Source: Thermoplasmatota archaeon (lineage in GTDB: Archaea; Thermoplasmatota; SW-10-69-26; JACQPN01; JAJPHT01). From it: a stretch of 64,000 bases of DNA. Within the stretch, counting starts at the first letter, position 1, and each line of letters begins with the position of its first letter. The notes beneath the pieces were generated by a model, which had not been told where the DNA came from, searched no databases, and worked only from the letters and a program-made list of their open reading frames with translations. Made by a program: the position numbers and the translations under genes. The stretch spans positions 3,743-67,742 of the forward strand of contig DATLCC010000102.1 of the NCBI GenBank assembly GCA_035526585.1, written 5' to 3'. Below are positions 4,159-53,909 of this stretch, piece by piece.

Positions 4159-4167
4159 GGACACACC

Positions 4168-4599
4168 ATGGAACCCCAGAAGATGGTCAACATCCTCCTC
4201 GTCGAGGACGACGAGGTCGACGTGATGAACGTGCGTCGCGCGTTCAAGAAGAACAACGTGATGAACCCGCTCTTCGTGGCCTCGAACGGCCTCGAAGCGT
4301 TGGAGCTCCTGCGCTCGAACGGCAAGCCCGCGCAGGTCCCCAAGGACCGGCGGCTCGTCCTCCTCGACCTCAACATGCCCAAGATGGGCGGGATCGAGTT
4401 CCTGCGCGAGCTGCGCGGCGACTCGGACCTGCGCTCGACCCCCGTCGTCGTGCTCACCACGTCGAACGAGGAGCGGGACCGCATCGAGGCGTACGACCTG
4501 AACGTCGCCGGCTACATCCTGAAGCCCGTCACGCTCACGAGCTTCATGGAGACGATGGCCACGCTCAATCGGTATTGGATGCTCAGCGAATTCCCATGA
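4168..4599 (+). CDS. Single-domain response regulator (CheY-like receiver)
   Basis: ILLVEDDEVD, phospho-acceptor context LVLLDLNMPKMGG, and conserved GYILKP lysine motif. The stop overlaps the next gene's ATG (ATGA at 4596-4599). Confidence 0.9.
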   Translation: MEPQKMVNILLVEDDEVDVMNVRRAFKKNNVMNPLFVASNGLEALELLRSNGKPAQVPKDRRLVLLDLNMPKMGGIEFLRELRGDSDLRSTPVVVLTTSNEERDRIEAYDLNVAGYILKPVTLTSFMETMATLNRYWMLSEFP

Positions 4600-8134: not shown

Positions 8135-8207
8135 GGGTCCGTGGGGTAGCTTGGTATCCTTGGTGCTTGGGGTGCACTTGACTTCGGTTCAAATCCGAAC
8201 GGACCCA
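8135..8207 (+). tRNA. tRNA-Pro (anticodon GGG)
   Basis: Hand-folded cloverleaf: acceptor GGGTCCG/CGGACCC, anticodon stem GGTGC/GCACT, loop TTGGGGT, T-arm TTCGG-TTCAAAT-CCGAA, discriminator A, no encoded CCA. Confidence 0.85.
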
Positions 8208-9868: not shown

Positions 9869-10028
9869 GCAGCCGGCTAGCCGCCACGACCAAGCGAGAG
9901 GAGATGCTTCTCTCCGTGTGCCTGCCTCGGCCCTGCTCCTTACCCTGCGCACCGACGCTCGCCGCCGCCCGGCTCGCCTCCTCGTGGTCTGGGCGCCGCC
10001 GACCGAGGAGCCCGGGCGCCCGCGGCAG

Positions 10029-10481
10029 ATGGGAGGCGCGGGCGGCGGCGCGCCCCCGTCGGACGTGTGCATCCTGATCGTGGACGACGATCCCCTCATG
10101 ACCGAGTTCCTTCCGCGCAAGCTCGCGCGCGCGATGGCGGACGGCGTGCGCATCGTGACCGCGGCCACGGCCCGCGAGGCGAGCGACATCCTCGCGCGCG
10201 AAAGGCCCGCGATCGTGCTCAGCGACTTCAACCTCCGCGAGGGGCGCACCGGGCTCGACGTGCTCGCGGAGGCCGCGCGCGAAGCGCCCGACGCGACCCG
10301 CATCCTCTTCAGCGGCCACACCCAGCGCGAGATCGGCATCCCGCTGCGCGAAGCCGACATCCACGGCTACATCGAGAAGCCGATGCGGATCGACGAGCTC
10401 GTGACGACGCTCCTCCACACGATCAAGGATGCGACGGGCATGGACCTCGCGCGAAAGGGAGCGGGCGATGGCAAGGCTTGA
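10029..10481 (+). CDS. Stand-alone response regulator receiver
   Basis: ILIVDDDPLM, VLSDFNL, LFSGH, YIEKP. Start taken at the internal ATG of track ORF 9918..10481. Confidence 0.8.
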   Translation: MGGAGGGAPPSDVCILIVDDDPLMTEFLPRKLARAMADGVRIVTAATAREASDILARERPAIVLSDFNLREGRTGLDVLAEAAREAPDATRILFSGHTQREIGIPLREADIHGYIEKPMRIDELVTTLLHTIKDATGMDLARKGAGDGKA

Positions 10482-11598
10482 GGAGGCCCCTTCCCGGCTC
10501 GCGCGCTTCGCGGGCCCGCTCCTCACGCTCATCGTCATCGCCGTCACGGAGATCTTCACGCACGCGATCCCCCTGGGCGAGCTCCCCTCCGCCGGGCTGT
10601 TCCTCCTCGCCTACGTGCCGATCGCCTACAGCGCGCTCCAGGGCGGCCTTCCGCTGGGCCTCCTTTCCACCGCGCTCCTCACCCTCTACACGTTCCGCTA
10701 CGTGGCGCAGCCTGGCGAGATCGTCGAGCTGCGCCCCATCGTGTGGCCCAGCCTCGCGATCGTCTCCGGCCTCGGCGTCGCGATGACGTGGCCCATGAGC
10801 CGGATCAAGAGGCGCGAGGATCGTCTGCGCGAGGCGCTCGAGTCGCGCGCGCAGGACCTCCAGGCGCGCAACGCCGATCTCACGAGCGCGAACGAAGCGC
10901 TCGAGGCGTTCGGATACGTCGTGAGCCACGACCTCAAGGAGCCCGTGCGCGCGCTGGAGAACTACCTCGACGCCGCGCGACAGGAATGGCCCAGCGACGA
11001 GAGCCGCGGCTTCGTCGAGCAGGCGTACCGCGCGAACGAGCGGCTCGCGCGGCTGCTGCACGGCCTCCTCGACTACAGCCGCCTCTCGAGCGGTGCCACG
11101 ACGACGCGCGCGGTGGACATCGAGGCCGTGCTCACGAGCGACGCATGTCGCGCGCAGTACGAGAAGCTCCTCCACGAGACGGACGCCCAGCTGCGCATCG
11201 AGCCCGGGCTCCCGCGCGTCCAGGGGGACGACGCGATGCTCGCCCAGCTGTTCGGCAACGTCCTCCTGAACGCGCTTCGCCACCACGGCCGCGCCGGCGC
11301 GCGCGTCGTCGTGGGCTCCGCCGAGGCGGCCGACGGCTTCGCGCACGTCACGGTCTGCGACGACGGCCCCGGCTTCCCCCCCGACGTCCTCGCGCGCTTC
11401 GGCGAGCTACGCGGCAACAGGCCCGCCACGATCAAGAGCGGCTTCGGCCTCGTCATCGCGCACCGCGCCGCCCAACGCCTGGGAGGCCGGATGTGGATCG
11501 AGAACCCGCCTGGCGGCGGCGCCCGCGTGCACGTCGAGCTTCCGGCCGCGCCCGGCGGGGCCGCCGCGACGGCGGCGCACCTCAGCCACACCGCGTGA
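10468..11598 (+). CDS. Membrane-bound histidine kinase
   Basis: About 4 N-terminal hydrophobic spans, coiled coil, H-box FGYVVSHDLKEPVR, N-box NVLLNALRH, DDGPGF, GFGLVI. Overlaps the preceding RR by 14 nt. Confidence 0.85.
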   Translation: MARLEEAPSRLARFAGPLLTLIVIAVTEIFTHAIPLGELPSAGLFLLAYVPIAYSALQGGLPLGLLSTALLTLYTFRYVAQPGEIVELRPIVWPSLAIVSGLGVAMTWPMSRIKRREDRLREALESRAQDLQARNADLTSANEALEAFGYVVSHDLKEPVRALENYLDAARQEWPSDESRGFVEQAYRANERLARLLHGLLDYSRLSSGATTTRAVDIEAVLTSDACRAQYEKLLHETDAQLRIEPGLPRVQGDDAMLAQLFGNVLLNALRHHGRAGARVVVGSAEAADGFAHVTVCDDGPGFPPDVLARFGELRGNRPATIKSGFGLVIAHRAAQRLGGRMWIENPPGGGARVHVELPAAPGGAAATAAHLSHTA

Positions 11599-32835: not shown

Positions 32836-33196
32836 CGCTGGGGGGTAAACCCCCCAGACCCCCCTTCTTGGACGCGTACTTAGCGGGCACGGCGACCCCA
32901 GGTGGACGGTCAGCAGCGGACGGGAGTAGCCCCGGAACGTTCTCGACCCCGCGACCCCACGAACGTCCTTGGTCCACGGTGAGGCTGCTCGCTTCCGCGC
33001 CTGACCCGGTGCCCGTGGCAAAGCACCTCCAGTCCGCTTCCGCGGACGAAGAGTTTGCGCCCCGAACCACGAGGGACGAAGTCTCATTGTCGATTCCGGG
33101 CTCCCGGACGCCCTGGGCCGCCGCCCCGGGATGATCGGCTCGCGCATGAAGGCCGTGTCGCGTCACAGGGGAGGCCTAACCCCCCAGCCTAGCCGG
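32836..33196 (-). ncRNA. Signal recognition particle RNA (7S RNA); ends +/- 20 nt
   Basis: Minus strand carries GGGTCAGGCGCGGAAGCGAGCAGCC (32983-33007), matching the universal helix-8 motif GGUCAGGUCCGGAAGGAAGCAGCC. A 5' Alu-domain-like GGCTAGGCTGGGGGGTTAGGCCTCCCCTGTGAC is present. 5' GCTGGGGGG can pair with 3' CCCCCCAGC. No credible CDS in this 600-bp gap. Confidence 0.8.
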
Positions 33197-33264
33197 TGCC
33201 TATCGCCTCCGCGTCCTGGCGGAGTCTATGCCGACGAGGCGCGGATGCGTGAAAAAGCTATGCC

Positions 33265-34752: not shown

Positions 34753-34824
34753 GGGCTCGTAGGCTAGCGGATAGACTGGAGGCCTCCGAAGCCTTCGGCC
34801 CGGGTTCGAATCCCGGCGGGCCCG
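34753..34824 (+). tRNA. tRNA-Arg (anticodon CCG)
   Basis: Acceptor GGGCTCG/CGGGCCC, anticodon stem GAGGC/GCCTT, loop CTCCGAA, T-arm CCGGG-TTCGAAT-CCCGG, no CCA. The D-stem has one C:A mismatch in my hand fold. Confidence 0.75.
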
Positions 34825-34837
34825 CTTTCGCGCCAGA

Positions 34838-34925: not shown

Positions 34926-34998
34926 TGGACGCTGGGGGATTTGAACCCCCGGCCTCGTCCTTGCGAAGGACGCGATCTACCAGCTGATCTAAGCGCCC
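34926..34998 (-). tRNA. tRNA-Ala (anticodon CGC)
   Basis: Minus strand reads GGGCGCTTAGATCAGCTGGTAGATCGCGTCCTTCGCAAGGACGAGGCCGGGGGTTCAAATCCCCCAGCGTCCA. G3:U70 Ala identity pair, loop TTCGCAA, no CCA. Confidence 0.9.
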
Positions 34999-42950: not shown

Positions 42951-44306
42951 ATGACCGTCGACCTCCGGCAGCGCAAGTACGCCCTCGACATCCACGGCAA
43001 GGAGATGGACGGCCAGGAGGTCGTCGTCGCGGGGTGGATGCAGGAGATCCGCGACATGGGGAAGATGGCGTTCATCATCCTCCGCGACCGCTCCGGCACG
43101 CTGCAGGTGTTCGCGATGAAGGCGAAGGTGGACGAGGCGCTCTACCTGACGCTCACGAAGGACCTGCAGCGCGAGTCGGTGATCGCGGTGCGCGGCCACG
43201 TGAAGGCCAGCGACAAGGCGAGGAACGGCTACGAGATCATCCCGTCGGAGGTCCGTGTGCTGAACCCTGCCGAGGCGCCGCTCCCCATGGGGATCGTGGA
43301 CAAGGTCGACGTGGATTTCGAGACGCGGCTCGACAACCGGTTCCTCGACCTGCGCAAGCCCGACGTCGCCGCGATCTTCCGCGTGCGCTCGGCGCTCGTG
43401 AAGGCGGGCATCGACTCGTTCACGCGGATGGGCTTCTGCCAGGTGCACACGCCGCGCATCATCGGCGCGTCCTCCGAAGGCGGCACGGACCTCTTCCCGG
43501 TCAAGTACTTCGAGAAGGACGCGTACCTCGCGCAATCGCCGCAGCTCTACAAGCAGATGCTGATGGCGACCGGCATGGACCGCCAGTTCGAGGTCGCGAC
43601 GTACTTCCGCGCCGAGAAGCACAACTCGTACCGGCACCTGAACGAGGTCACCGCGTTCGACGTGGAGATGGCGTTCATCGAGAGCGAGGAGGAGGTCCTC
43701 CACGTGCTCGAGACCGCCGTGCGCGACATGTGGGCGGGCGTGCACGAGCACTGCAGGTCCGAGCTCGCGATCCTCCAGAAGGAGGTCAAGGTCCCCGCCC
43801 TGCCCTTCCCCCGCGTCCACTACGACGACGCGCTGAAGATGGTGAACGAGACGAAGCGGTGGACCAACGACAAGGGCGAGGTCGCCGAGATCCCCTGGGG
43901 CGACGACCTCAACGCCGCGGCCGAGAAGATCCTCGGCGACGTCATGGTCGCGAAGGGGCACCACTTCTACTTCATCACGAAGTACCCCGAGACGATCCGC
44001 CCCTTCTACACGTACGTGGAGGAGGGCACGGCTGTCACGCGCAGCTTCGATCTCGAGCACAACGGCTTGGAGGTCACGAGCGGCGCGCAGCGCCAGCACG
44101 ACCCGAAGAAGCTCGAGAGCCGCATCCGCGACAAGGGGCTCGACCCCGCGGACTTCACGGACTACCTCAAGCCCTTCCGCTACGGCATGCCGCCGCACGG
44201 GGGATTCGGATTGGGCATCGACCGGCTCACGATGGAAGTGCTCGGGCTCGCGAACGTGCGCGAGGCGGTCCTCTTTCCGCGGGACCGCACGCGCCTCGCG
44301 CCGTAG
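42951..44306 (+). CDS. aspS: Aspartyl-tRNA synthetase, archaeal/eukaryal type
   Basis: OB-fold N-terminus (VVVAGWMQEIRDMGKMAFIILRDRSG). Class II motifs FRAEKHNSYRHLNE and GMPPHGGFGLGIDRL. About 451 aa with no bacterial insertion domain. Confidence 0.95.
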   Translation: MTVDLRQRKYALDIHGKEMDGQEVVVAGWMQEIRDMGKMAFIILRDRSGTLQVFAMKAKVDEALYLTLTKDLQRESVIAVRGHVKASDKARNGYEIIPSEVRVLNPAEAPLPMGIVDKVDVDFETRLDNRFLDLRKPDVAAIFRVRSALVKAGIDSFTRMGFCQVHTPRIIGASSEGGTDLFPVKYFEKDAYLAQSPQLYKQMLMATGMDRQFEVATYFRAEKHNSYRHLNEVTAFDVEMAFIESEEEVLHVLETAVRDMWAGVHEHCRSELAILQKEVKVPALPFPRVHYDDALKMVNETKRWTNDKGEVAEIPWGDDLNAAAEKILGDVMVAKGHHFYFITKYPETIRPFYTYVEEGTAVTRSFDLEHNGLEVTSGAQRQHDPKKLESRIRDKGLDPADFTDYLKPFRYGMPPHGGFGLGIDRLTMEVLGLANVREAVLFPRDRTRLAP

Positions 44307-44385
44307 GCGCACTCGGCATCGAGCACCTGCCCATCGCACGCTCCACGTCGAACGGAACCACGGCGCTCTCGAAGGACACGAAGAC

Positions 44386-44928
44386 GTGACGGGGTCGTCG
44401 TCGGGGGCGGCGCAAGCTTGGGCGGGACATCCGCTCGGTTGGCAGAAGATTCTTGCGAGGCCCGGACTCCTTGGGGACTCGGTGGCCGCCGCCCCAGTAC
44501 GCGACGAGATCGTGGTCCTGCTCGTGGACGACGATCCGTTCATCCGCGAATTCCTGCCCCTCCTCGTCCTCCGCGGCGCCCCTCCGGGTACGCCGCTCCC
44601 CCGCATCGAGGTCGCGCAGGCGCCCGAGGAGGCGCTTGCGCTGAGCGGCTCGCTGAAGGCGACGCGCCTCGTCGTGGTCTCGGATTTTGATCTCAAGACC
44701 GCGACGACGGGCCTCGACCTTCTCGTCGAGATGGCGCGCCGCCGGCCCGATTCGGTGCGGATCCTCCTCAGCGGGCACCGCCGCGTCGAGCTGGGCTCCC
44801 TGGTCGATCACCCCGAGCACGTGCAGTGCTTCCTGGAGAAGCCGTTCAAGCTGCAGGAGCTGATCGCCCCCCTCTGGCAGGCGATCCTCACGGGCCTCGC
44901 GACGCGGGATCCTCGTCAGGGATCGTGA
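44386..44928 (+). CDS. Stand-alone response regulator receiver
   Basis: VLLVDDDPFIREFL, VVSDFDL, LLSGH, FLEKPF. GTG start is uncertain. The 3' end overlaps the convergent kinase gene by 41 nt. Confidence 0.7.
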   Translation: MTGSSSGAAQAWAGHPLGWQKILARPGLLGDSVAAAPVRDEIVVLLVDDDPFIREFLPLLVLRGAPPGTPLPRIEVAQAPEEALALSGSLKATRLVVVSDFDLKTATTGLDLLVEMARRRPDSVRILLSGHRRVELGSLVDHPEHVQCFLEKPFKLQELIAPLWQAILTGLATRDPRQGS

Positions 44929-46144
44929 ACCGGAACACGCTCCCCTTCCCTCGTCCCTGGCTCTCGACCCAGATGCGCCCGCCATGGCGCTCGACGATCT
45001 TCTTGCAGAGGGCGAGCCCCATCCCGGTCCCAGGATGGCGCCCCCGCGGATCGAGGCGCGTGAAGATGGTGAAGAGGCGCGGGACGTCGACGGGATCGAT
45101 GCCGAGCCCTTCGTCCTTGACGCTGAAATGCCAGGCGCGCCCCTCGCGGCGCGCGTCGATCTCGATGCGAGGCGGGGCGCCGGGGGCGGTGAACTTGATC
45201 GCGTTCTGGACGAGGTTCTGGAACACGCGTGGCAGATGCACGGGGTCCCCATGGATGGCGGGGAGGTCGCCGACGCGGATCTTCGCGCGCGCTTCGCGGA
45301 TGGCGACGTCGAGCGATTCGAGGACGTCCGCCACCGCCTTCTTCGTGTCGACGATCTGCCCCGAGCCCCCCTTGTCCGCGGACGAGTATTCGAGGAGCGC
45401 CCGCACGAGCTCGTGCATCCGCGAGGTCCCGGCTGCCGCGCGCTCGAGGAGGAGCCGCTGGCCGGCGTCGAGCGAGAGCTTGTCGTCCTCGAGGAGCATG
45501 TGGACGCTCGTGCCGATCGCGCGCAGCGGCTCCTGGATGTCGTGGGAGGCGACGTACGCGAACTCGCGGAGCTCCGCGTTGGAGCGCTCCAGCTCGAGCG
45601 CGGTCCGCGTCAATTCCGAGATGTCCGTCACGATGAGGCAGACGTGCGGGACGCTGTCGCCCTCGCGCACGAGGAACGAGCCGCTCGCCACGAGCGCGGG
45701 GACGCGGGTCCCGTCCACGGCGAGGATCGGGATCTCCAGTGAGACGCCAGCCGTGGGCTCCTTGACGAGGCGCTGGATCGAGGGGCGGTCGGTCTCGTCG
45801 ACGAAATCGTGGATCGAGCGCGCGAGGACCCGATCCAGCGTCGTCCTCGCAAGCTGCGCGAACCGCGCGTTCGCGTACACGATGGTCCCGTCGGGCGCGA
45901 GCGTCAGCGCACCTTCCGCCATCGTCTCGACAAGGATGCGAAAAGGATGGTCGGCGCCTTCGAGCGTGTAGGCGCGCTCGCCTCGCGGTCCGCTCACGAC
46001 GATCGCGTCGACCTCGCCCGACCTGATCGCGTCAAGCGTCGCCTCGGCCTCCTCGAGCCTTGCGCGCAGCCGCTCCCACTCCTTCTCGCTCCGGCGCCCG
46101 GGCTTCGCGGCCTTGCGGGAGCGCGCTCCCTTCTTCGAGGTCAT
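44888..46144 (-). CDS. Soluble PAS histidine kinase, last gene of the kai operon
   Basis: PAS block, H-box FAYVASHDIQEPLR, N-box QNLVQNAIKF, DEGLGI, GTGMGLALC. Its ATG overlaps the kaiB-2 stop (ATGA). Confidence 0.85.
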   Translation of the reverse strand: MTSKKGARSRKAAKPGRRSEKEWERLRARLEEAEATLDAIRSGEVDAIVVSGPRGERAYTLEGADHPFRILVETMAEGALTLAPDGTIVYANARFAQLARTTLDRVLARSIHDFVDETDRPSIQRLVKEPTAGVSLEIPILAVDGTRVPALVASGSFLVREGDSVPHVCLIVTDISELTRTALELERSNAELREFAYVASHDIQEPLRAIGTSVHMLLEDDKLSLDAGQRLLLERAAAGTSRMHELVRALLEYSSADKGGSGQIVDTKKAVADVLESLDVAIREARAKIRVGDLPAIHGDPVHLPRVFQNLVQNAIKFTAPGAPPRIEIDARREGRAWHFSVKDEGLGIDPVDVPRLFTIFTRLDPRGRHPGTGMGLALCKKIVERHGGRIWVESQGRGKGSVFRFTIPDEDPASRGP

Positions 46145-46575
46145 CCCTTCTTCGCCGCCCTCGCCGCGGCCTCGATGGCGGCGGCGCGTTTGAGGTCCAG
46201 GCCGAGGAGTACGCGTTCGCGTGCGCTTAGATCCCCGACCAGGCGGCGGATCGGGGCGGGGAGCTTCCGGATGAGCGTCGGGACGGCGACGATCTGCTCG
46301 CCTCGCGCGAGCGCGGGCTGCTGGTAGATGTCGATCACCTGGAGATCGTAGCGGCCTTCGAGGTGGACGTCGCAGATCTGCTTGATCGTCTCCACGGCGC
46401 GTAGCGACGCGGGGGTCGCGCCGGTCACGTAGAGCTTGAGGACGAAGCGATCCCTGCGCGCCGCGCGCGCCTTCGTCCGCGAGGACGCGGGGCGACGGGC
46501 GGGCATCTTCGTCGACGTGCGTCGCCCCTTCTTGGCGCCCTCCTTGGGCGCCGGCGCAGCGCGCTTCCGGGTCAT
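46141..46575 (-). CDS. kaiB: KaiB-family protein (copy 2) with basic N-terminal tail
   Basis: Core [26 protein letters not shown]...[21 protein letters not shown], preceded by about 43 Lys/Arg/Ala-rich residues. ATG overlaps the kaiB-1 stop. Confidence 0.8.
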
Positions 46576-46955
46576 CGGCGCCGCTCCTGGTCGGGACGCA
46601 CCTGAAGTCCGACGAGCGTGCGCTCCTCGTTGCTGAGGTCCCCGATGATCTTCTTCACGGGCGGAGGAAGGCGCCGCACGAGCGTCGGGACGGCGATGAT
46701 CTCGTCGCCGCGCGCAAGCTTCGGATCCACGAGGAGGTCCACGACCTCGATCGAGTAGCGACCCTTGAGATGCACCTCGCAGAGCCGCTGCAGGTTCTCC
46801 AATGCGGCCAACGACTTGGGCGTCTGCCCAGCCACGTAGAGCCTGAGCTTCCAGCGCTCGGCCTTGGGCCTCGCGGCCTTGGCGGGGACCGGACGAGCCT
46901 TGCTCGTCTTCTTCGCGCCCTTCGCGCCTTTCCTGGCCTGCTTGGCCTTCGCCAT
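46572..46955 (-). CDS. kaiB: KaiB-family protein (copy 1) with basic N-terminal tail
   Basis: Core [26 protein letters not shown]...[21 protein letters not shown], preceded by about 34 Lys/Arg/Ala-rich residues. ATG shares one base with the kaiC TGA. Confidence 0.85.
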
Positions 46956-48757
46956 CAGGATCGCCTCTTCCCGCCGCGCGCAGGCATCCCCTCACGGCCT
47001 CGAGCCAGCGACGCACGGGACCGCGTGGCCTGCTCGATGCGTTCGGACTCGACCATATCGGCGTGCTTTTCGGCGCGAGCGGCCTCGTCGATCTCCTCCT
47101 CGACGGCCTTGATCTGTGCCTGGAGCGCGTGGCGCTTGCGACGGACGTCCTCCGCGCGCCCTGCGGCCGCCGATCGCTGCTCGACCTCGCGCACGGCCTC
47201 CTTCGCCTCGTGGGCCGCGCGAGCGCTCCCCGTGAGGACGCCGGAAGGGCCGACGTAGATGTCGCGCAGCTGGATGCCCTTCTTGGACATGGTGAACTCG
47301 CGAAGCTGGTTGCTGTGCGGCATGCCGCGAGACTTGAGGATCCCGATCGCGCGGTTGCGCTCTCCGTTCTCTTCGAAGTTGCGCAGGTGGATCCACGTGT
47401 CCACGATGGAGCTGATCCCGACGACGCTGTCCTCGAACGTGGGCGCTTCGTTGAGGGCGCTGAACACGCTCGTGATGTGGTGGCTCTTGAGATGATCGAC
47501 GAGCCGCGTGAGCATCGACCGCACAGTCTCGAGGTTCCCCGCGCTGTGGAAGTCCGTCACGGGGTCCACGATGACGACGCGCGGCTCGAAGGCGCGGATC
47601 TCTTTCACCATGCGCGCGAGGTGCATCTCGAGGCCGTACGTCGTCGGCCGCGAGCACTGGAAGCGCAGAAGCCCCGATCTCGCGAAGGGCGCGAGATCGA
47701 CGCCGATGCTCCGCATGTTGCGGATGATCTGGCTGGGGGACTCCTCGAATCCGAAGTAGAGGCAGCGCTCCCCGCGCGCGCAGGTCGCCTGGACCATGTT
47801 CGCGAGGAGGCTCGACTTCCCGGTCCCGGTCGCTCCCGTGATGAGGGCGGTCGAGCCTTCGTAGACCCCTTTCGCGCCGAGCATCTCGTCGAGCCCGGGC
47901 GTCCCGGTGGAGACGCGACGCTCGGAGCTTTCGTGGATGAGCTCGAGGCCCGTGATGGGAGCGATGCTCAAGCCATCGTTGTCGATGAGGAACGGGTAGG
48001 CGTTGGAGCCGTGACGCGAGCCGCGGTATTTGACGACCCGGATCCGTCGCGTGGCGACGTCGCCTTCGAGCCGGTTGTCCAGCGCGATCACGCAGTCTGT
48101 GACGTACTCCTCGAGCCCGTGCCGCGTGAGCGAGCCGCCCACGCCCGACTCCGCGGTGACGACCGTCGTGAGCCCCTTCTCCTTGAGCCACGCCATCAGG
48201 CGCGCGAATTCGCTGCGCAGCACGGCGTGGTCGTCAAGGCCAGCAAAGAGGGCGTCGAGCGTGTCGAGCACGACGCGCTTCGCCCCGACCGCATCCACCG
48301 CGCTCTGGAGTCGCACGAAGAGGCCATCGAGCGTGTACTCGCCGGTCTCCAGCATCGTGTTCCGGTCGACGCGGATGTGGTCCACGGCGAGCTTGCCCTG
48401 ACGCCGGAGCGCATCCAGATCGATGCCGATCGAAAGCGAGCTCTTTGCGATGTCCTCGGGGCTCTCCTCGAACGCGAGGAGGACGCCGTTCTCGCCTTCC
48501 TCCAGGATGCCCGCAGAAAGAAATTGGCAGGCCAGGTTCGTCTTGCCAGAGCCCGCCCCTCCCGCGACAAGCGTCGGGCGGCCGCGGGGAAGGCCGCCAT
48601 CCGTGATGTCGTCGAGGCCCGCGATCCCGCTTGGCGTTTTCTGCACTCCTTCGATCCGGCTGGCCCCTTTCCGTCTCGCTCCCACGTGCGTTCGCTCCGC
48701 GCGGCCTCTCGCCACGGGACGCCCAAACCTCGGAATCCCGCTTAAAGGGAGCGTCAT
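46955..48757 (-). CDS. kaiC: KaiC-family double RecA-like ATPase with C-terminal coiled-coil extension
   Basis: [17 protein letters not shown], two Walker A motifs ([16 protein letters not shown]), FEES in both halves. Start is uncertain (ATG 48757 or GTG 48685). Confidence 0.9.
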
Positions 48758-48865
48758 CCCTGGAAGCGAGCGACCGGGTGAGCAACGGCGCGGGCGCTTC
48801 GTGCTCGCGCGGCGCCGCGTCGGCCTCCGGACGGCGCTCACGGGCGCGGCATCGCGCCGGTCGCC

Positions 48866-49324
48866 TCACGGCATGCCAGGCAGGAGCGGCGGCGTGCCCG
48901 CGACGCAGTCAAGGCCGTCACCGCCGTTCGGGACCGGGTCGAAGCCGTACGTGTACTCCGTCATGGTGCAGTAGGGCTCGCCTGGCTCGCCGCCGAACGA
49001 CCACGAGTAGCCGTACCACGCGACGCCCGCCGCCTTGTACTCGCCTGTGTTCTCATCGAACGAGTAGTAGCCCACGGCGAGGCCGCTGTCCTCCTCGGCG
49101 TAGAAGCCGTCGTCGTACGTGTAGCAGTAGCTCGACACGCTCGCGTGCTGCGAGCCGTCGTCGACGTGCACGCCGCGCTCGGCGCCGTCGTTCGCGCCTT
49201 CGCAGCCGTCGCCGGACGAGGTGACGTTGGCGCACGTGTCGGCGTCGAGGCAGACGGGGTCCGCGGCGGCGGCGGGGACGAGGGCGGTCGCGAGCAGGCA
49301 CAGGATCAGAAGCTTCGTCGTCAT
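48866..49324 (-). CDS. Secreted Cys/Tyr/Gly-rich protein (152 aa), hypothetical
   Basis: Signal peptide MTTKLLILCLLATALVPAAAA and 8 Cys. C-terminal part of track ORF 48866..49810. Confidence 0.6.
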   Translation of the reverse strand: MTTKLLILCLLATALVPAAAADPVCLDADTCANVTSSGDGCEGANDGAERGVHVDDGSQHASVSSYCYTYDDGFYAEEDSGLAVGYYSFDENTGEYKAAGVAWYGYSWSFGGEPGEPYCTMTEYTYGFDPVPNGGDGLDCVAGTPPLLPGMP

Positions 49325-49328
49325 GATA

Positions 49329-50204
49329 TCAGTCTCCCTGCGGAATGGGAATGTCGCTCCCCAGCACGAAGGCCGGCGTGCGCCAGCAGCGCTCGCCCGC
49401 GAGGGCGCGGCAGAGCGGCTGGTTGTCGTTCTCGTCCACGTTGCGGTCGATGCGGAACGTGTGGTCCCCCGCCGGCATGCCGGGAAGGAGGAAGCCGTCC
49501 GACATCGCGATCGGGTCGCCCGGCCCGTCGACGGAGATCTCCTGGAGGCCGAGGTGCGACCCGGCCCAGAAGGACGCGAACAGCGCGCCTTCGATGGGCA
49601 CGGTCGCGGCGGCGTCGAGCTGCGCCTTCGCCTCCACGACGCCATCGCGCACCGGCAGCGACTCGCGCGCGACGACGTTCGCCGCGCCGTCGAGGTCGCG
49701 TTCGGTGAGGAGGAACGCGTCGCCGCTCGTCGTCGCGAGAACGGTCGCGCCGTCGTCGGCGAACATGCGCCATTCGCCCGTCGTCGCTCCCTCGAACGCG
49801 CCCAACGCAACGACGATCCACTCGTGGTCGTACGCGGGATCGAAGTCGACGCGCATCTCGATGGGCCATGGCGATCCGCCGGAGAGCTCGGAGACGAGCG
49901 TGCCGGTCTGCGCGGTCTGCGCGTGGAGCTCGTGGCCGCCCTCGTCGTACCAGGTCGGGTTGATGAGGCCGTTGAACTCCATCGTCTCGGCGTCGATGAA
50001 CCAGAGGCCGAAGCTCGCGAAGGTCGCCTCCTCGTGCGTCGCGGCGAGCCACACGCTGAAGAAGGAATGGGCGGGCAGGAAGAGGCGCCACGCCGTCGCG
50101 GTGGGGCCCTCGAACGGGATGCTCTGGATCAGCGGCGCGTCGGGCGGGTCGAATGCGGCGACGGTGGGCGCGAGGAGCAGAGCTATCACGAGCAAGGCGC
50201 GCAT
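49329..50204 (-). CDS. Secreted hypothetical protein (291 aa)
   Basis: Signal peptide MRALLVIALLLAPTVAA. Internal ATG of track ORF 49329..50246. Confidence 0.6.
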   Translation of the reverse strand: MRALLVIALLLAPTVAAFDPPDAPLIQSIPFEGPTATAWRLFLPAHSFFSVWLAATHEEATFASFGLWFIDAETMEFNGLINPTWYDEGGHELHAQTAQTGTLVSELSGGSPWPIEMRVDFDPAYDHEWIVVALGAFEGATTGEWRMFADDGATVLATTSGDAFLLTERDLDGAANVVARESLPVRDGVVEAKAQLDAAATVPIEGALFASFWAGSHLGLQEISVDGPGDPIAMSDGFLLPGMPAGDHTFRIDRNVDENDNQPLCRALAGERCWRTPAFVLGSDIPIPQGD

Positions 50205-50272
50205 AGGGCCTCCCGAGACGCGAGCGGCCCCCCGAGGGAAAAGCATTCCCGTCCGGAAGCCTCTGCGACCGT

Positions 50273-50848
50273 ATGCGTACCCTGCTCGTCGCCCTCCTGC
50301 TCGCCGCGCCCCTTGCGGCGGGGGAAGCCGACATCGGCGCCCTCGTCGCGAGCCTGCGGGCGCAAGGCGCCACCACGCTCACGGGCGCAGAAGGGGCGCC
50401 CGCCGTGCCCGCGGACGTGGGGTACGCCGTCCGGACGGAGGATCTCCCGTGCTACGTCGCGGCGCTCCTCACCGTGTTCGAGGTGACGACGGACGGCGTG
50501 CCGCGCGACGGGATCGAGATCGAGCGCACGCTCCTCGCGCCCGAGCCCGTCGTGCCGTGCGGCTATGGCTTCGAAAGCTGGGTGGGGGAAGCGCGCGCGA
50601 CGGTCGCGCCCGATGCGTGGGACTGGGTCGCGTGCACGGCGTTCGAAGGAGGACTCGGCGGCTGGGCCGCGATCAGCGCGCCGTGCCACGTCGCGGACTT
50701 CTCCGAGGTGACGCTCACCGGGCGCGTCGGCGTCGTGCGTCTCTCCGATTGCTCGGCGGAGGGCGTGTGCGTCACGATGCAGCAGGTCTTCGGTGGCACG
50801 AACAACGCGCCGGGCCACGCGGACGCGGCGTCCATCCGCATCGCCTGA
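50273..50848 (+). CDS. Secreted hypothetical protein (191 aa)
   Basis: Signal peptide MRTLLVALLLAAPLAAG and 6 Cys. Confidence 0.6.
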   Translation: MRTLLVALLLAAPLAAGEADIGALVASLRAQGATTLTGAEGAPAVPADVGYAVRTEDLPCYVAALLTVFEVTTDGVPRDGIEIERTLLAPEPVVPCGYGFESWVGEARATVAPDAWDWVACTAFEGGLGGWAAISAPCHVADFSEVTLTGRVGVVRLSDCSAEGVCVTMQQVFGGTNNAPGHADAASIRIA

Positions 50849-50940: not shown

Positions 50941-52218
50941 ATGAACTATACCGACTTCCTCGAGCTTGGCGCGAGCGCGCGCCCCGAAGAGTTCGTCTGC
51001 ACGTTCCGCCTCGAAGCGCATCCCTCGGTCAAGTTCGACTGGGCCGCGGGCGCGCTCGCCGCCGAATCGAGCATCGGGACGTGGGATCCGGGCCTCACGA
51101 CGATGACGGGGGAGGAGCGCCAGTACGGCGCCCGCGTCATCAAGCTCGACGAGGAGAAGAAGCTCGTCTGGATCGCGTACCCGCCGGCCCTCTTCGAGTT
51201 CGGCAACCTCTCGCAGCTCCTCTCGAGCGTCGTGGGCAACGTGTACGGCCTCAAGGAAGTGCAGAAGCTGCGCTTCGTGGACATCGAGATGCCCAAGGAG
51301 TTCGTCCGCAGCTTCAAGGGCCCGCAGCTCGGGATCGAGGGCGTGCGCAAGATGACGGGCATCCACGGGCGCCCGATCACCGGCACGATCGTGAAGCCCA
51401 AGCTCGGCCTCTCGTCCGAGAACTGGGCGAAGGCCGCATACAACGCGTGGCGCGGCGGCATCGACTTCGTGAAGGACGACGAGAACCTCACGAGCATGCC
51501 GTTCAACACCTTCCACAAGCGCGTGGAGCTCGTCATGGAGGCCAAGAAGAAGGCCGAGCGAGAGACGGGCGAGAAGAAGCTCTACTTCTGCAACGTGAGC
51601 GCGCCCGTCACGGAGATGAAGCGACGCGCCGACGAGGTCATCGGGCGCGGCAACGACTACGTCATGATCGACGTGCTCACCGTCGGCTGGTCCGCCGTGC
51701 AGGAGATGCGCGACTTCCTCGACGGACGCGGCATCGGCATCCACGCGCACCGCGCGATGCACGGCGCGTTCAGCCGGCTCGAGGAGCACGGCATCGACAT
51801 GTTGCCGGTCTCCAAGTGGATCCGCATGGCCGGCGCCGACACGCTCCACGCCGGAACCCTTGGCGCGGGCAAGATGTTCACCGAGGGCGGCAAGTCGCAC
51901 GCCAAAGGGATCTACGACATGCTCCGCGGAGACATGCACGGCCTCAAGCCGACCCTCCCCGTCGCCTCGGGCGGCATGCACCCGGGCGTCATCGCGCAGG
52001 TCTGGGAGGCCAACGGCGGCTCGCCCGACTTCTGCGCGGCCGCAGGTGGCGGCGTCCACGGGAACCCGCTGGGCTCGCAGGCCGGCGCGAAGGCGATGCG
52101 GCAGGCCGTCGAAGCCTACCAGAAGGGCATCAGCCCCGAGGAATACGCGAAGACGCACGATGAGCTCGCCGCCGCCATCAAGCGCTGGGGCACGAAGCCC
52201 GTGAGCGGCGCGGAGTAG
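50941..52218 (+). CDS. rbcL: Ribulose-1,5-bisphosphate carboxylase/oxygenase large subunit, form III type
   Basis: Catalytic contexts are retained: AAESSIGTW, GNVYG, IVKPKLGLS, GGIDFVKDDENL (carbamylated Lys), IHAHRAMHGA, PVASGGMHPG, GGGVHGNP. No small-subunit gene; AMP phosphorylase lies downstream. Confidence 0.85.
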   Translation: MNYTDFLELGASARPEEFVCTFRLEAHPSVKFDWAAGALAAESSIGTWDPGLTTMTGEERQYGARVIKLDEEKKLVWIAYPPALFEFGNLSQLLSSVVGNVYGLKEVQKLRFVDIEMPKEFVRSFKGPQLGIEGVRKMTGIHGRPITGTIVKPKLGLSSENWAKAAYNAWRGGIDFVKDDENLTSMPFNTFHKRVELVMEAKKKAERETGEKKLYFCNVSAPVTEMKRRADEVIGRGNDYVMIDVLTVGWSAVQEMRDFLDGRGIGIHAHRAMHGAFSRLEEHGIDMLPVSKWIRMAGADTLHAGTLGAGKMFTEGGKSHAKGIYDMLRGDMHGLKPTLPVASGGMHPGVIAQVWEANGGSPDFCAAAGGGVHGNPLGSQAGAKAMRQAVEAYQKGISPEEYAKTHDELAAAIKRWGTKPVSGAE

Positions 52219-52250
52219 GAGCGCGAGGCCAGCTTCGCCCAGAGCGACCT

Positions 52251-52310
52251 ACGCGACGACGCGACCCACGCGACATGCTATCAGGGTCGCGTGCGTCGCG
52301 TCCGTCGCGC
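52251..52310. repeat. Long imperfect hairpin built from CGCGAC / GTCGCG units (copy 2)
   Basis: 3x CGCGAC (52252, 52260, 52269), loop ATGCTATCAGG, 3x GTCGCG (52286, 52295, 52304). Shares the 15-mer GTCGCGTCCGTCGCG with copy 1. Confidence 0.8.
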
Positions 52311-52376
52311 TGCGCGACGCGGCGCAAAGGGAGCCAAGCTTAAGCCCCCAAACCCCCCAACAGAGTTGACTCGAAC

Positions 52377-53909
52377 ATGGAAGGTCTCAACCTCAAGGCC
52401 AAGATCCTCGACATCGACCTTGGCAAGTTCCAGGTGCTCCTGCACTCCGCCGACGCCGAGGAGCTTGGCGTCCATCCGGGCGACCGCGTCCGCGTGCACG
52501 CGAACAACCTCGACGTGATCGCCGTCGTCGACGTCACGAAGAGCGTCGTGCCCGAAGGCATCATCGGCGTCTTCGCCGACGTACGCACGCACTTTGGCGT
52601 CGAGGACGCGCACGACATGTTCGTGCGGCCTGCGGAAAAGCCCGAGAGCGTCCGCTTCATCAAGAAGAAGATGCACGGCAAGAAGCTCACGCGCGAGGAG
52701 ATCGACCAGGTCATCGTCGATACGGTGAACGGATCCCTCACCGACATCGAGCTCTCCGCGTGGGTCACCTCGCTCGAGATCAACGACATGGACATGGAGG
52801 AGATCGAGTACCTCACACGCTCCATGGTGAAGCACGGCGAGGTCCTCGACTTCGGCCCCGAGGCCGTCGTCTTCGACAAGCACTCGATCGGCGGCGTGCC
52901 AGGCAACAAGATCTCGCTCCTCATCGTCCCCATCGTCGCCGCGGCCGGCCTCCTCATCCCCAAGACATCGAGCCGCGCCGTCACCGGCGCCGCCGGCACC
53001 GCGGACGTGATGGAGGTCTTCGGACCCGTGAGCCTCTCGGGCCCCCAGATCATGGAGATCACGCGCGACGTCGGCGGCGTCCTCTGCTGGGGCGGCGGCG
53101 TCAACCTCGCCCCCTCCGACGACATCATCATCCGCGCCGAACACCCCCTCTCCATCGACCCCCGCGCCCAGCTCCTCGCGAGCGTCATGGCCAAGAAGAA
53201 GGCCGTCGGCGCCAACAAGGTCGTCATGGACCTCCCCATGGGAGACGGCACGAAGCTCCCCACGATCGACGACGCCAAGAAGATCGGCCGCATGTTCATC
53301 GACCTCGGAGAACGCCTCGACATGCAGGTCGAATGCGCCGTCACCTACGGCGGCCAACCCGTCGGACGCGCCGTCGGATGCTCCCTCGAAGCGAACGAAG
53401 CCCTCGCCGCGCTCCGCGGCCTCGAGACCGCCCCCAGATCCCTCGTCGAAAAAAGCGTAGGCATCAGCGGCATCATCCTCGAGATGGGCGGCGTCGTCGG
53501 CCGCGGCAAAGGCCGCGCCAAAGCCGAAGAGATCCTCCGCTCGGGCGAAGCCCTCGCGAAATTCATCGAGATCGTCGAAGCCCAGAACGGAAAGGTCCCC
53601 AAAGGCGACTTCGCCATCGGCCCCTTCCACGCCGACCTCACCACCGTCGAAGGCGGCTACGTCTCCGGCATGAAGAACAAAGCGCTCATCGCCATCGCAC
53701 GCGCCTCCGGCAGCCCCAAGGAACACGGCGCAGGCATCGTCGTCCACCACAAACGCGGAGACCGCGTCGCCCCCGGCGAACCCATGATGACCATCTACGC
53801 CGAATCCCAATACCGCCTCGACCAGGCCATGGCGCTCGCGCGAAAAACGCAACCCATCATCGTCGAAGGCATGCTCCTCTCCAGGATGCCGGAAGTGAGG
53901 GAGCTCTAA
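52377..53909 (+). CDS. deoA: AMP phosphorylase (archaeal thymidine-phosphorylase-family enzyme)
   Basis: About 85-aa N-terminal extension typical of AMPpase, VRFIKKKMHGKKL, HSIGGVPGNK, PKTSSRAVTGAAGTAD, and a C-terminal PIIVEGMLLSR-type tail. Confidence 0.9.
   Translation: MEGLNLKAKILDIDLGKFQVLLHSADAEELGVHPGDRVRVHANNLDVIAVVDVTKSVVPEGIIGVFADVRTHFGVEDAHDMFVRPAEKPESVRFIKKKMHGKKLTREEIDQVIVDTVNGSLTDIELSAWVTSLEINDMDMEEIEYLTRSMVKHGEVLDFGPEAVVFDKHSIGGVPGNKISLLIVPIVAAAGLLIPKTSSRAVTGAAGTADVMEVFGPVSLSGPQIMEITRDVGGVLCWGGGVNLAPSDDIIIRAEHPLSIDPRAQLLASVMAKKKAVGANKVVMDLPMGDGTKLPTIDDAKKIGRMFIDLGERLDMQVECAVTYGGQPVGRAVGCSLEANEALAALRGLETAPRSLVEKSVGISGIILEMGGVVGRGKGRAKAEEILRSGEALAKFIEIVEAQNGKVPKGDFAIGPFHADLTTVEGGYVSGMKNKALIAIARASGSPKEHGAGIVVHHKRGDRVAPGEPMMTIYAESQYRLDQAMALARKTQPIIVEGMLLSRMPEVREL

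Follow-up and report, generated by a model that had tools for sequence, protein, structure and literature searches.

Why does an archaeal genome carry a kaiC gene followed by two kaiB genes and a histidine kinase gene, and how much of the unusual appearance of this operon is really new? The question is raised by a stretch of 64,000 nucleotides from a Thermoplasmatota archaeon (assembly GCA_035526585.1, contig DATLCC010000102.1, positions 3,743 to 67,742), called here 'the window'. Four minus-strand open reading frames (ORFs) across 44888-48757 were identified from the ORF list and Pfam as kaiC, two kaiB genes (kaiB-alpha and kaiB-beta) and a PAS histidine kinase gene. Most of the apparent strangeness of this operon is already known, and is explained by the literature on KaiC2/KaiB hourglasses. 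The genes appear to constitute a KaiB-KaiC 'hourglass' signalling cassette that belongs to the KaiC2 type and does not depend on KaiA, in a Thermoplasmatota-like archaeon. Three features look undescribed: a conserved alpha/beta KaiB pair, module-wide and lineage-specific polycationic tails, and the occurrence of the cassette as an insertion in an archaeon. Taken jointly, the identity of the cassette, the reality of its tails, the KaiB paralog pair and the insertion make up a statement that we consider probably correct. The coordinates of all features are collected in Table 1.

Table 1. Features of the Kai locus, in positions of the window
Feature	Coordinates	Strand	Remarks
kaiC, KaiC2 type	46955..48757	-	PF06745 twice (E 4e-101); 600 aa from ATG 48757, 576 aa from GTG 48685
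Ser449-Ser450 (600-aa numbering), presumed autophosphorylation pair	47408..47413	-	SSIVD aligned with GLSSLMD of 8DBA
KaiC C-terminal extension, residues 510-590	46988..47230	-	predicted single continuous helix; matches 8DBA 476-554 (HMMER)
kaiB-alpha, 127 aa	46572..46955	-	PF07689 at residues 38-118, E 3e-24; best PDB match 8fwj_M, E 1.5e-29
KaiB-alpha N-tail	46854..46955	-	34 aa: 9 Lys, 4 Arg, 10 Ala, 3 Pro, 1 acidic
kaiB-beta, 144 aa	46141..46575	-	PF07689 at residues 47-127, E 6e-26; beta clade
KaiB-beta N-tail	46447..46575	-	43 aa: 6 Lys, 11 Arg, 2 acidic
PAS-HisKA-HATPase_c kinase, 418 aa	44888..46144	-	Pfam PAS 68-179, HisKA 192-259, HATPase_c 299-411
Stand-alone receiver gene, 180 aa	44386..44928	+	Response_reg 29.2 bits, just below the 30.2 cut-off, E 1e-6; GC3 0.85
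Accessory segment, 6.5 kb	44311..50836	.	receiver gene, kinase, two kaiB, kaiC, three small acidic secreted-looking ORFs

The genes are tightly coupled. When the minus strand is read directly, the kaiC stop codon (TGA, 46957-46955) and the kaiB-alpha start codon (ATG, 46955-46953) are joined in TGATG (46957 to 46953), while ATGA joins kaiB-alpha to kaiB-beta (46575 to 46572) and kaiB-beta to the kinase gene (46144 to 46141). The overlaps therefore measure 1-4 nt at all three junctions. These are the coordinates given in the initial annotation, which had proposed a single unit of KaiC, two KaiBs and a PAS kinase; both the overlaps and the Pfam domains bear this out. Since a 4-nt overlap between kaiC and the first kaiB is present in all nine related loci for which public gene calls exist, the start/stop overlaps at 3/3 window junctions are not chance. 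The same four-gene order is found in eight of these nine further metagenomic or archaeal loci, including that of Candidatus Methanoperedens and that of another archaeon; the exception (L046) has a single kaiB. A Pfam scan detected no KaiA domain in the operon or in the scanned neighbouring ORFs, although the window was not scanned exhaustively. KaiA, the component that a self-sustained KaiABC oscillator would require, is known from cyanobacteria only (PMC5520375). A promoter and terminator scan of 44000-49600, of a kind ill-suited to archaea, gave one weak sigma-70-like match 5' of an unrelated ORF and no terminators.

KaiC itself can be placed with some precision. Its best match in the Protein Data Bank (PDB) is KaiC from Rhodobacter sphaeroides (8DBA, E 7e-173, query 37-588 aligned). 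Two RecA domains are recognisable, each with a Walker A motif (GGAGSGKT at 66, GATGTGKS at 308) and a catalytic Glu pair (FEES at 96 and 337). The serine pair listed in Table 1 is numbered S413/S414 in R. sphaeroides (PMC10076222) and is replaced by EE in the second sequence of 8FWI/8FWJ, that is, by the S413E/S414E phosphomimetic of the same paper. The CII site is thus Ser-Ser and not Ser-Thr, as described there for the KaiC2 subgroup. About 90 residues follow the CII domain. For residues 495-600, treated as a monomer, AlphaFold2 predicts a helix at fragment residues 16-96, with pLDDT >90 over the central 50 residues. Alignments with cyanobacterial KaiC end at query residue 513 and that with 8DBA continues to 588, so that the predicted helical extension reaches beyond cyanobacterial KaiC by at least the ~50 aa expected of a KaiC2. 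Such an extension is typical of the kaiC2 subgroup, in which it builds a 12-helix coiled coil that links two hexamers and removes the need for KaiA (Pitsawong et al. 2023, PMC10076222). The extended KaiC of the initial annotation therefore does carry a long helical C-terminal extension but this is not new, being the published KaiC2 coiled coil (8DBA; PMC10076222). The extreme C-terminus of the window protein is Arg-rich. On these comparisons the window KaiC is a KaiC2-type protein, and hence of a known kind.

One detail of the earlier gene model does not stand. The kaiC ORF opens at GTG 48841, and translation had been taken to begin at ATG 48757. A start 24 codons further downstream, at GTG 48685, is more likely because public annotation gives this KaiC a length of 576 aa, because GGAG lies upstream at a suitable distance, and because the G+C content at third codon positions (GC3) of the long form is only 0.71 in codons 1-24 against 0.89 in the rest.

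The kinase carries an H-box (SHDIQEPLR) at residue 200 and a basic N-terminus (19 residues). To assess how general the arrangement is, 40 GTDB loci encoding relatives of the window KaiC were examined. In about 35 of them the next gene after kaiB encodes a kinase whose N-terminal PAS region is homologous to that of the window kinase. Gene order, location on one strand and close spacing are those of the context described for non-cyanobacteria, in which kaiC and kaiB are followed by a kinase gene (PMC3164672), and in Rhodopseudomonas palustris kaiC, kaiB and a PAS histidine kinase gene form an operon for which one promoter is predicted (Ma et al. 2016, PMC4794148). The kaiC-kaiB-kinase order is thus confirmed here but had been published for R. 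palustris and others. The stand-alone receiver gene is convergent with the kinase gene, their 3' ends overlapping by 41 nt (44888-44928), and lies inside the inserted segment considered below. Its product is a candidate for the cognate response regulator of the kinase; other loci encode a hybrid kinase that includes a receiver domain, or have a receiver gene after the kinase gene. Two more pairs of histidine kinase and receiver genes occur in the window (3358-4599 and 10014-11523), and the receiver at ~10014-10427 resembles the Kai-adjacent one (phmmer E 8e-23).

The second kaiB gene is where the cassette departs from published descriptions. Both window KaiBs cover PF07689 profile positions 1-81/82, and so include a full-length KaiB domain, and both match KaiB chains in the PDB (E 1e-24 to 1e-29); KaiB-beta scores 97 bits against KaiB of S. 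elongatus. They are 51% identical to each other over the core. Two tandem kaiB genes lie directly 3' of an extended kaiC in 30 of the 40 GTDB loci and, in paired loci, the first KaiB always resembles the first of the window and the second KaiB the second. In a neighbour-joining tree without support values, alpha and beta form separate clades, with R. sphaeroides KaiB and most single-copy KaiBs inside alpha and cyanobacterial KaiB outside both. An initial tree of all KaiBs had split beta in two, and the clean alpha and beta clades were obtained with a better-aligned subset. Judged in this way, KaiB-beta is an anciently diverged and regular member of the cassette, with no characterised member. 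Clean in-frame alpha-beta fusion proteins also exist (P0002, P0121, P0122, P0124 and P0125), which suggests that KaiB-alpha and KaiB-beta act in one complex. We found no mention of an alpha/beta KaiB pair in the open-access literature, which is weak evidence of novelty.

Each window KaiB begins with a basic tail (Table 1), whose net charge up to the residue before the conserved core is +12 in KaiB-alpha and +15 in KaiB-beta. In KaiB-alpha there is no in-frame ATG, GTG or TTG from ATG 46955 to a Val inside strand 1. The minimum tail is therefore also the maximum tail (35 residues when counted up to strand 1), and an intact KaiB fold needs the tail to be translated. The start ATG of KaiB-beta overlaps the kaiB-alpha stop codon and has AGGAG in front of it, with a spacing of 8 nt. 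An internal Met24 has no such motif, and a short form starting there would still include a basic tail of 21 aa. GC3 is 0.90-0.96 in all tail segments (0.91 in the KaiB-alpha tail, and 0.91 and 0.90 in codons 1-23 and 24-43 of KaiB-beta). The KaiB tails are real. The initial annotation had argued for the long forms from the overlapping start codons, and both the coding-like GC3 and the lack of an internal start in KaiB-alpha uphold this. Its remark that cyanobacterial KaiB has no such tail is also correct, and extends to R. sphaeroides KaiB; both of these have only 5-8 residues before the core.

The KaiB-alpha tail is predicted to be intrinsically disordered: in a low-confidence single-sequence model (mean pLDDT 63) it has no secondary structure and a pLDDT of ~50. 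Its composition is that of a histone-H1-like tail (Lys/Ala/Pro-rich, low-complexity and disordered). The resemblance to histone-like or nucleic-acid-binding tails noted in the initial annotation is one of composition only. A search of the open-access literature for KaiB N-terminal tails gave only an unrelated extension of ~150 aa in a cyanobacterial 'elongated KaiB'. In the KaiB-beta tails of seven loci (L001, L002, L025, L037, L041, L042 and L044) a semi-conserved [FY]-[EQ]-x-A-[IL]-A is followed, after 4-7 residues, by [YF]. This motif lies just before strand 1, is degenerate in the window copy, and hints at a small beta-specific helix.

To determine how widespread such tails are, the KaiB-alpha core was compared with 1.84 billion representatives, the tail being excluded to avoid bias. 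At least 15 residues precede the core in 103 of the 127 single-domain matches (median 24). The tail net charge among these 103 is at least +3 in 45 (and at least +8 in 18) but -3 or below in 18. The extension ends in a conserved E-x-W just before strand 1. An N-terminal extension is thus, by these matches, a trait of the KaiB subfamily and strong basicity a minority state. The tails survive the check on which the initial annotation had staked them, namely internal starts and conservation in orthologs, in the sense that KaiB-alpha offers no internal start and that an N-terminal tail is the rule in the subfamily. A comparison limited to related archaea, which had also been proposed, is no guide to tail conservation: the two closest relatives available have no operon at this site, and the tails of the Methanoperedens cassette are short and acidic.

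The basic state extends to the other proteins of the module. Approximate charges in the window are +12 for the KaiB-alpha tail, +15 for the KaiB-beta tail, +7 to +8 for the kinase N-terminus and +3 to +8, depending on the start, for the KaiC N-terminus. The N-terminal 30 residues of the window Kai genes carry +7 to +11, compared with -6 to +5 for most other window genes, and Lys accounts for 8-12% of the two KaiBs compared with 0-9% of other window proteins. The same basic pattern is found in L025, a Verrucomicrobiota locus from the unbiased GTDB set (+8, +8 and, for the kinase, +12 to +14). In five loci picked only for a basic KaiB-alpha (L041, L042, L043, L047 and L048), the KaiB-beta tail and the KaiC N-terminus are basic in every case. 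As for the kinase, a clearly basic N-terminus is confined to the window and L025; in the picked loci it is weakly basic where it can be read. Where alpha tails are acidic, the partner proteins are acidic or neutral. As the automated choice of starts in the 40 GTDB loci is noisy (some tails are over-extended or missing), minimum and maximum tails and the gene-called loci were used instead. Acidic or neutral tails occur in actinomycete loci (69% GC), L046 (70% GC) and Methanoperedens (43% GC). GC content was considered as a cause of basic tails and rejected, since L046 and the actinomycete loci are acidic. Charge complementarity between tails and KaiC was also rejected: KaiC core and coil are less acidic in basic-tail loci, so that the charges shift in the same direction.

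How might such a cassette work? By homology, KaiC would form two hexamers joined via the C-terminal coiled coil, an arrangement in which Ser449/Ser450 could be autophosphorylated in the absence of KaiA. KaiB-alpha would dock on the CI ring and promote the return to the dephosphorylated state, and the PAS histidine kinase, probably with the convergent receiver protein, would link the state of KaiC to a two-component output. KaiB-beta most likely works with alpha, either by alternating with it in the ring on CI or by serving as an adaptor to the kinase, because of the fusions and the strict co-occurrence of the two. Lys/Arg/Ala-rich, presumably disordered N-tails are carried by KaiB-alpha, KaiB-beta, the kinase and, less certainly, KaiC. 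We tentatively favour a role in which the tails would anchor the entire module, by electrostatic attraction, to a polyanion such as nucleoid DNA, RNA or polyphosphate and thereby concentrate the partners, because all partners are tailed and because the tails have a purely cationic character and lack a hydrophobic moment. This preference is unproven, and two other explanations of the tails, discussed below, are comparably likely.

A number of points weigh against this picture. The dodecamer, the phosphorylation and the binding of KaiB are extrapolated from proteins of R. sphaeroides that are ~50% identical, and the alpha/beta division comes from neighbour-joining without support values. The operon is of a bacterial type, and an archaeal host may or may not express and use it. 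The loci in which tail charges co-vary are few, phylogenetically non-independent and partly chosen for a basic alpha tail, and the GTDB starts are noisy. The less acidic KaiC core and coil in basic-tail loci could reflect a general drift in composition of the cassette lineage. The KaiC 'basic tail' is only partly secure, as the protein may have 576 or 600 aa. Finally, the tails have no recognisable DNA-binding motif.

One of the two comparably likely explanations gives the polyanion no role. The charge of the KaiB tails would tune the timer, basic tails speeding and acidic tails slowing the encounter of KaiB with the net-negative CI ring of KaiC. This possibility, which we would not put above a doubtful one, is consistent with the negative net charge of the KaiC core in nearly all loci (-1 to -18), with tail charges that range from -6 to +17 between lineages while the core is ~70% identical (as expected of a kinetic knob), and with the finding that KaiB binding governs the return phase in R. 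sphaeroides (PMC10076222). However, tail and KaiC charges shift in the same direction and do not compensate each other. Neither the basic kinase N-terminus (window and L025) nor the basic KaiC termini of the basic-tail loci would be predicted for an on-rate device specific to KaiB.

Alternatively, the tails may be neutral disordered spacers, short extensions that this KaiB subfamily tolerates and that drift in composition from one lineage to another; the window would have inherited its basic state with a transferred cassette. This too is possible, though we would not bet on it. Apart from E-x-W the tail sequences cannot be aligned, and tails of 7 to 70 aa occur, with charges of either sign. 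The window KaiB-alpha clusters in the neighbour-joining tree with the basic-tailed cassettes L041-L043, which fits inheritance, and in R. sphaeroides a KaiB with no more than 5 residues ahead of its core is functional. On the other hand, a Lys content of 8-12% in a 70% GC genome argues for selection, as other window proteins show 0-9%. Basic tails arising in parallel across the alpha tree (L025, L037/L001 and the window group) are hard to obtain via drift alone, and a tail is kept in 103 of 127 representatives. Polyanion tethering remains our tentative choice among the three.

That the window is archaeal follows from three observations: it includes a full-length archaeal signal recognition particle (SRP) RNA (32886-33200, minus strand; RF01857, 154 bits), it carries the archaeal AMP-salvage gene pair, in which the RuBisCO large subunit (425 aa) lies directly 5' of AMP phosphorylase (510 aa; 50941-53909, plus strand), and the 90%-identity cluster of this AMP phosphorylase holds a protein named 'Candidatus Thermoplasmatota archaeon'. 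The Kai genes lie in a 6.5 kb accessory segment with aspartyl-tRNA synthetase (AspRS) on one side and type III RuBisCO on the other. In a blastn search of the window, two relatives (L049 and L050) are syntenic, with 84-86% nucleotide identity up to 44310 and again from 50837/50842. On the side that ends at 44310 the collinear match takes in H+-PPase and AspRS; from 50837 it picks up again with RuBisCO and AMP phosphorylase, a pair kept in both relatives. A radical-SAM gene takes the place of the segment in one relative and a BNR-repeat gene in the other. As both collinear relatives are without 44311-50836 and have other genes there, the Kai cassette is accessory cargo in a variable hotspot.

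The boundaries of the segment give no indication of how it was acquired: no integrase or tRNA was seen there, no direct repeats flank it, and a repeat search across it gave low-identity chance matches only. The three tRNA genes noted in the window (8135-8207, 34753-34825 and 34926-34998, for Pro-GGG, Arg-CCG and Ala-CGC) do not adjoin these boundaries. Three small ORFs inside the segment (48866-50848) have signal-peptide-like N-termini and acidic mature parts (net -13 to -27) and gave no Pfam match; the first of them is Cys-, Tyr- and Gly-rich. A Thermoplasmatota relative with no cassette at the syntenic site (GCA_035687045.1) has another KaiC-KaiB locus (L027; contig DASRYU010000267). That locus encodes a KaiC without the coiled-coil extension and a single alpha-type KaiB without a basic tail. 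For this reason, and because the window KaiB-alpha groups with L041-L043, the basic state probably arrived together with the cassette. The arrival was not recent, since cassette GC (0.68-0.69) and GC3 (0.87-0.91) are the same as those of the host genome.

The cassette could in principle be left over from a horizontal transfer, in decay and without any function for the archaeon. Its position in a variable hotspot, its absence from two relatives, and the fact that the nearest KaiC proteins among GTDB representatives and a set of 5.8 billion proteins are mostly bacterial and only 53-59% identical could be read in this way. Nevertheless, none of the four ORFs is broken, no catalytic or phospho-acceptor motif is missing, the translational coupling is kept, and the match of GC and GC3 to the host points to long residence under selection; we consider decay very improbable. 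Least credible of all is that the long KaiB forms are annotation artefacts, with translation beginning near the thioredoxin-like core and the tails being untranslated spacers: high-GC genomes do yield long spurious ORF extensions, the KaiC N-terminus does seem to have been over-extended in the earlier call and KaiB-beta has an internal ATG at codon 24, but KaiB-alpha offers no in-frame start between ATG 46955 and the strand-1 Val, tail GC3 is coding-like, starts overlap the upstream stop in 9/9 gene-called relatives, and even the shortest possible KaiB-beta tail would be basic and 21 aa long.

A bolder version of the preferred reading combines all of these elements. An obligate mixed alpha/beta ring would sit at each end of the KaiC dodecamer, the polycationic tails of all subunits would tether timer and kinase to a polyanion, be it the nucleoid or a different one, readout of KaiC phosphorylation would be local, and the whole would have been acquired ready-made by horizontal transfer. 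We regard this combination as decidedly unlikely. If true, local readout of a tethered KaiC would be a form of clock output without a described precedent among Kai systems.

The more modest findings also have consequences. The R. sphaeroides timer is the only KaiA-free timer that has been dissected both structurally and kinetically, and it has one KaiB. Most relatives of the window KaiC carry a second KaiB, in some cases fused to the first, and the hourglass model may therefore miss a regular component. The alpha/beta pair is also carried by two cultured bacteria, Pedobacter quisquiliarum and Dankookia rubra, which makes it open to experiment. Tails of variable charge would provide a simple handle on the tuning or localisation of such timers. 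For archaeal biology, the locus clearly exemplifies how a bacterial-type module for timing and two-component signalling can reside, complete, in a strain-variable hotspot.

Finally, the cassette can be compared with known systems. Lys/Ala/Pro-rich, histone-H1-like tails occur on prokaryotic DNA-associated proteins, for example mycobacterial HupB and Deinococcus HU. The window tails share with these a composition of Lys, Ala, Pro and Arg with few hydrophobic residues, and predicted disorder. They differ in having no regular repeat of the PAKKA type and in what they are joined to, which is not a DNA-binding fold but proteins of a clock and its signalling.

With the cyanobacterial KaiABC system and its kinases SasA and CikA, the window shares a double-domain KaiC with its motifs, the KaiB fold family and an output through a histidine kinase. 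In contrast, it has no KaiA in the scanned ORFs, a Ser-Ser instead of a Ser-Thr site, a coiled-coil extension on KaiC and a kinase with a PAS domain instead of a KaiB-like N-terminal domain. Unlike cyanobacterial KaiABC, the window system is probably not self-sustained. The R. palustris operon is similar in having kaiC, then kaiB, then a PAS histidine kinase gene, but it has one kaiB where the window has two, and tails are not mentioned in its description (PMC4794148).

The closest known counterpart is the KaiBC hourglass of R. sphaeroides (8DBA/8DB3 and, for the KaiBC complex, 8FWJ; PMC10076222). Both systems are without KaiA, their KaiCs share the Ser-Ser site and a homologous C-terminal helix, and R. 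sphaeroides KaiB is the best match of KaiB-alpha (Table 1) and belongs to the same clade. The window differs in its archaeal host, in the degree of divergence (identity of ~50%), in KaiBs with basic tails of 34-43 aa as against 5 residues, and in its second KaiB, beta.

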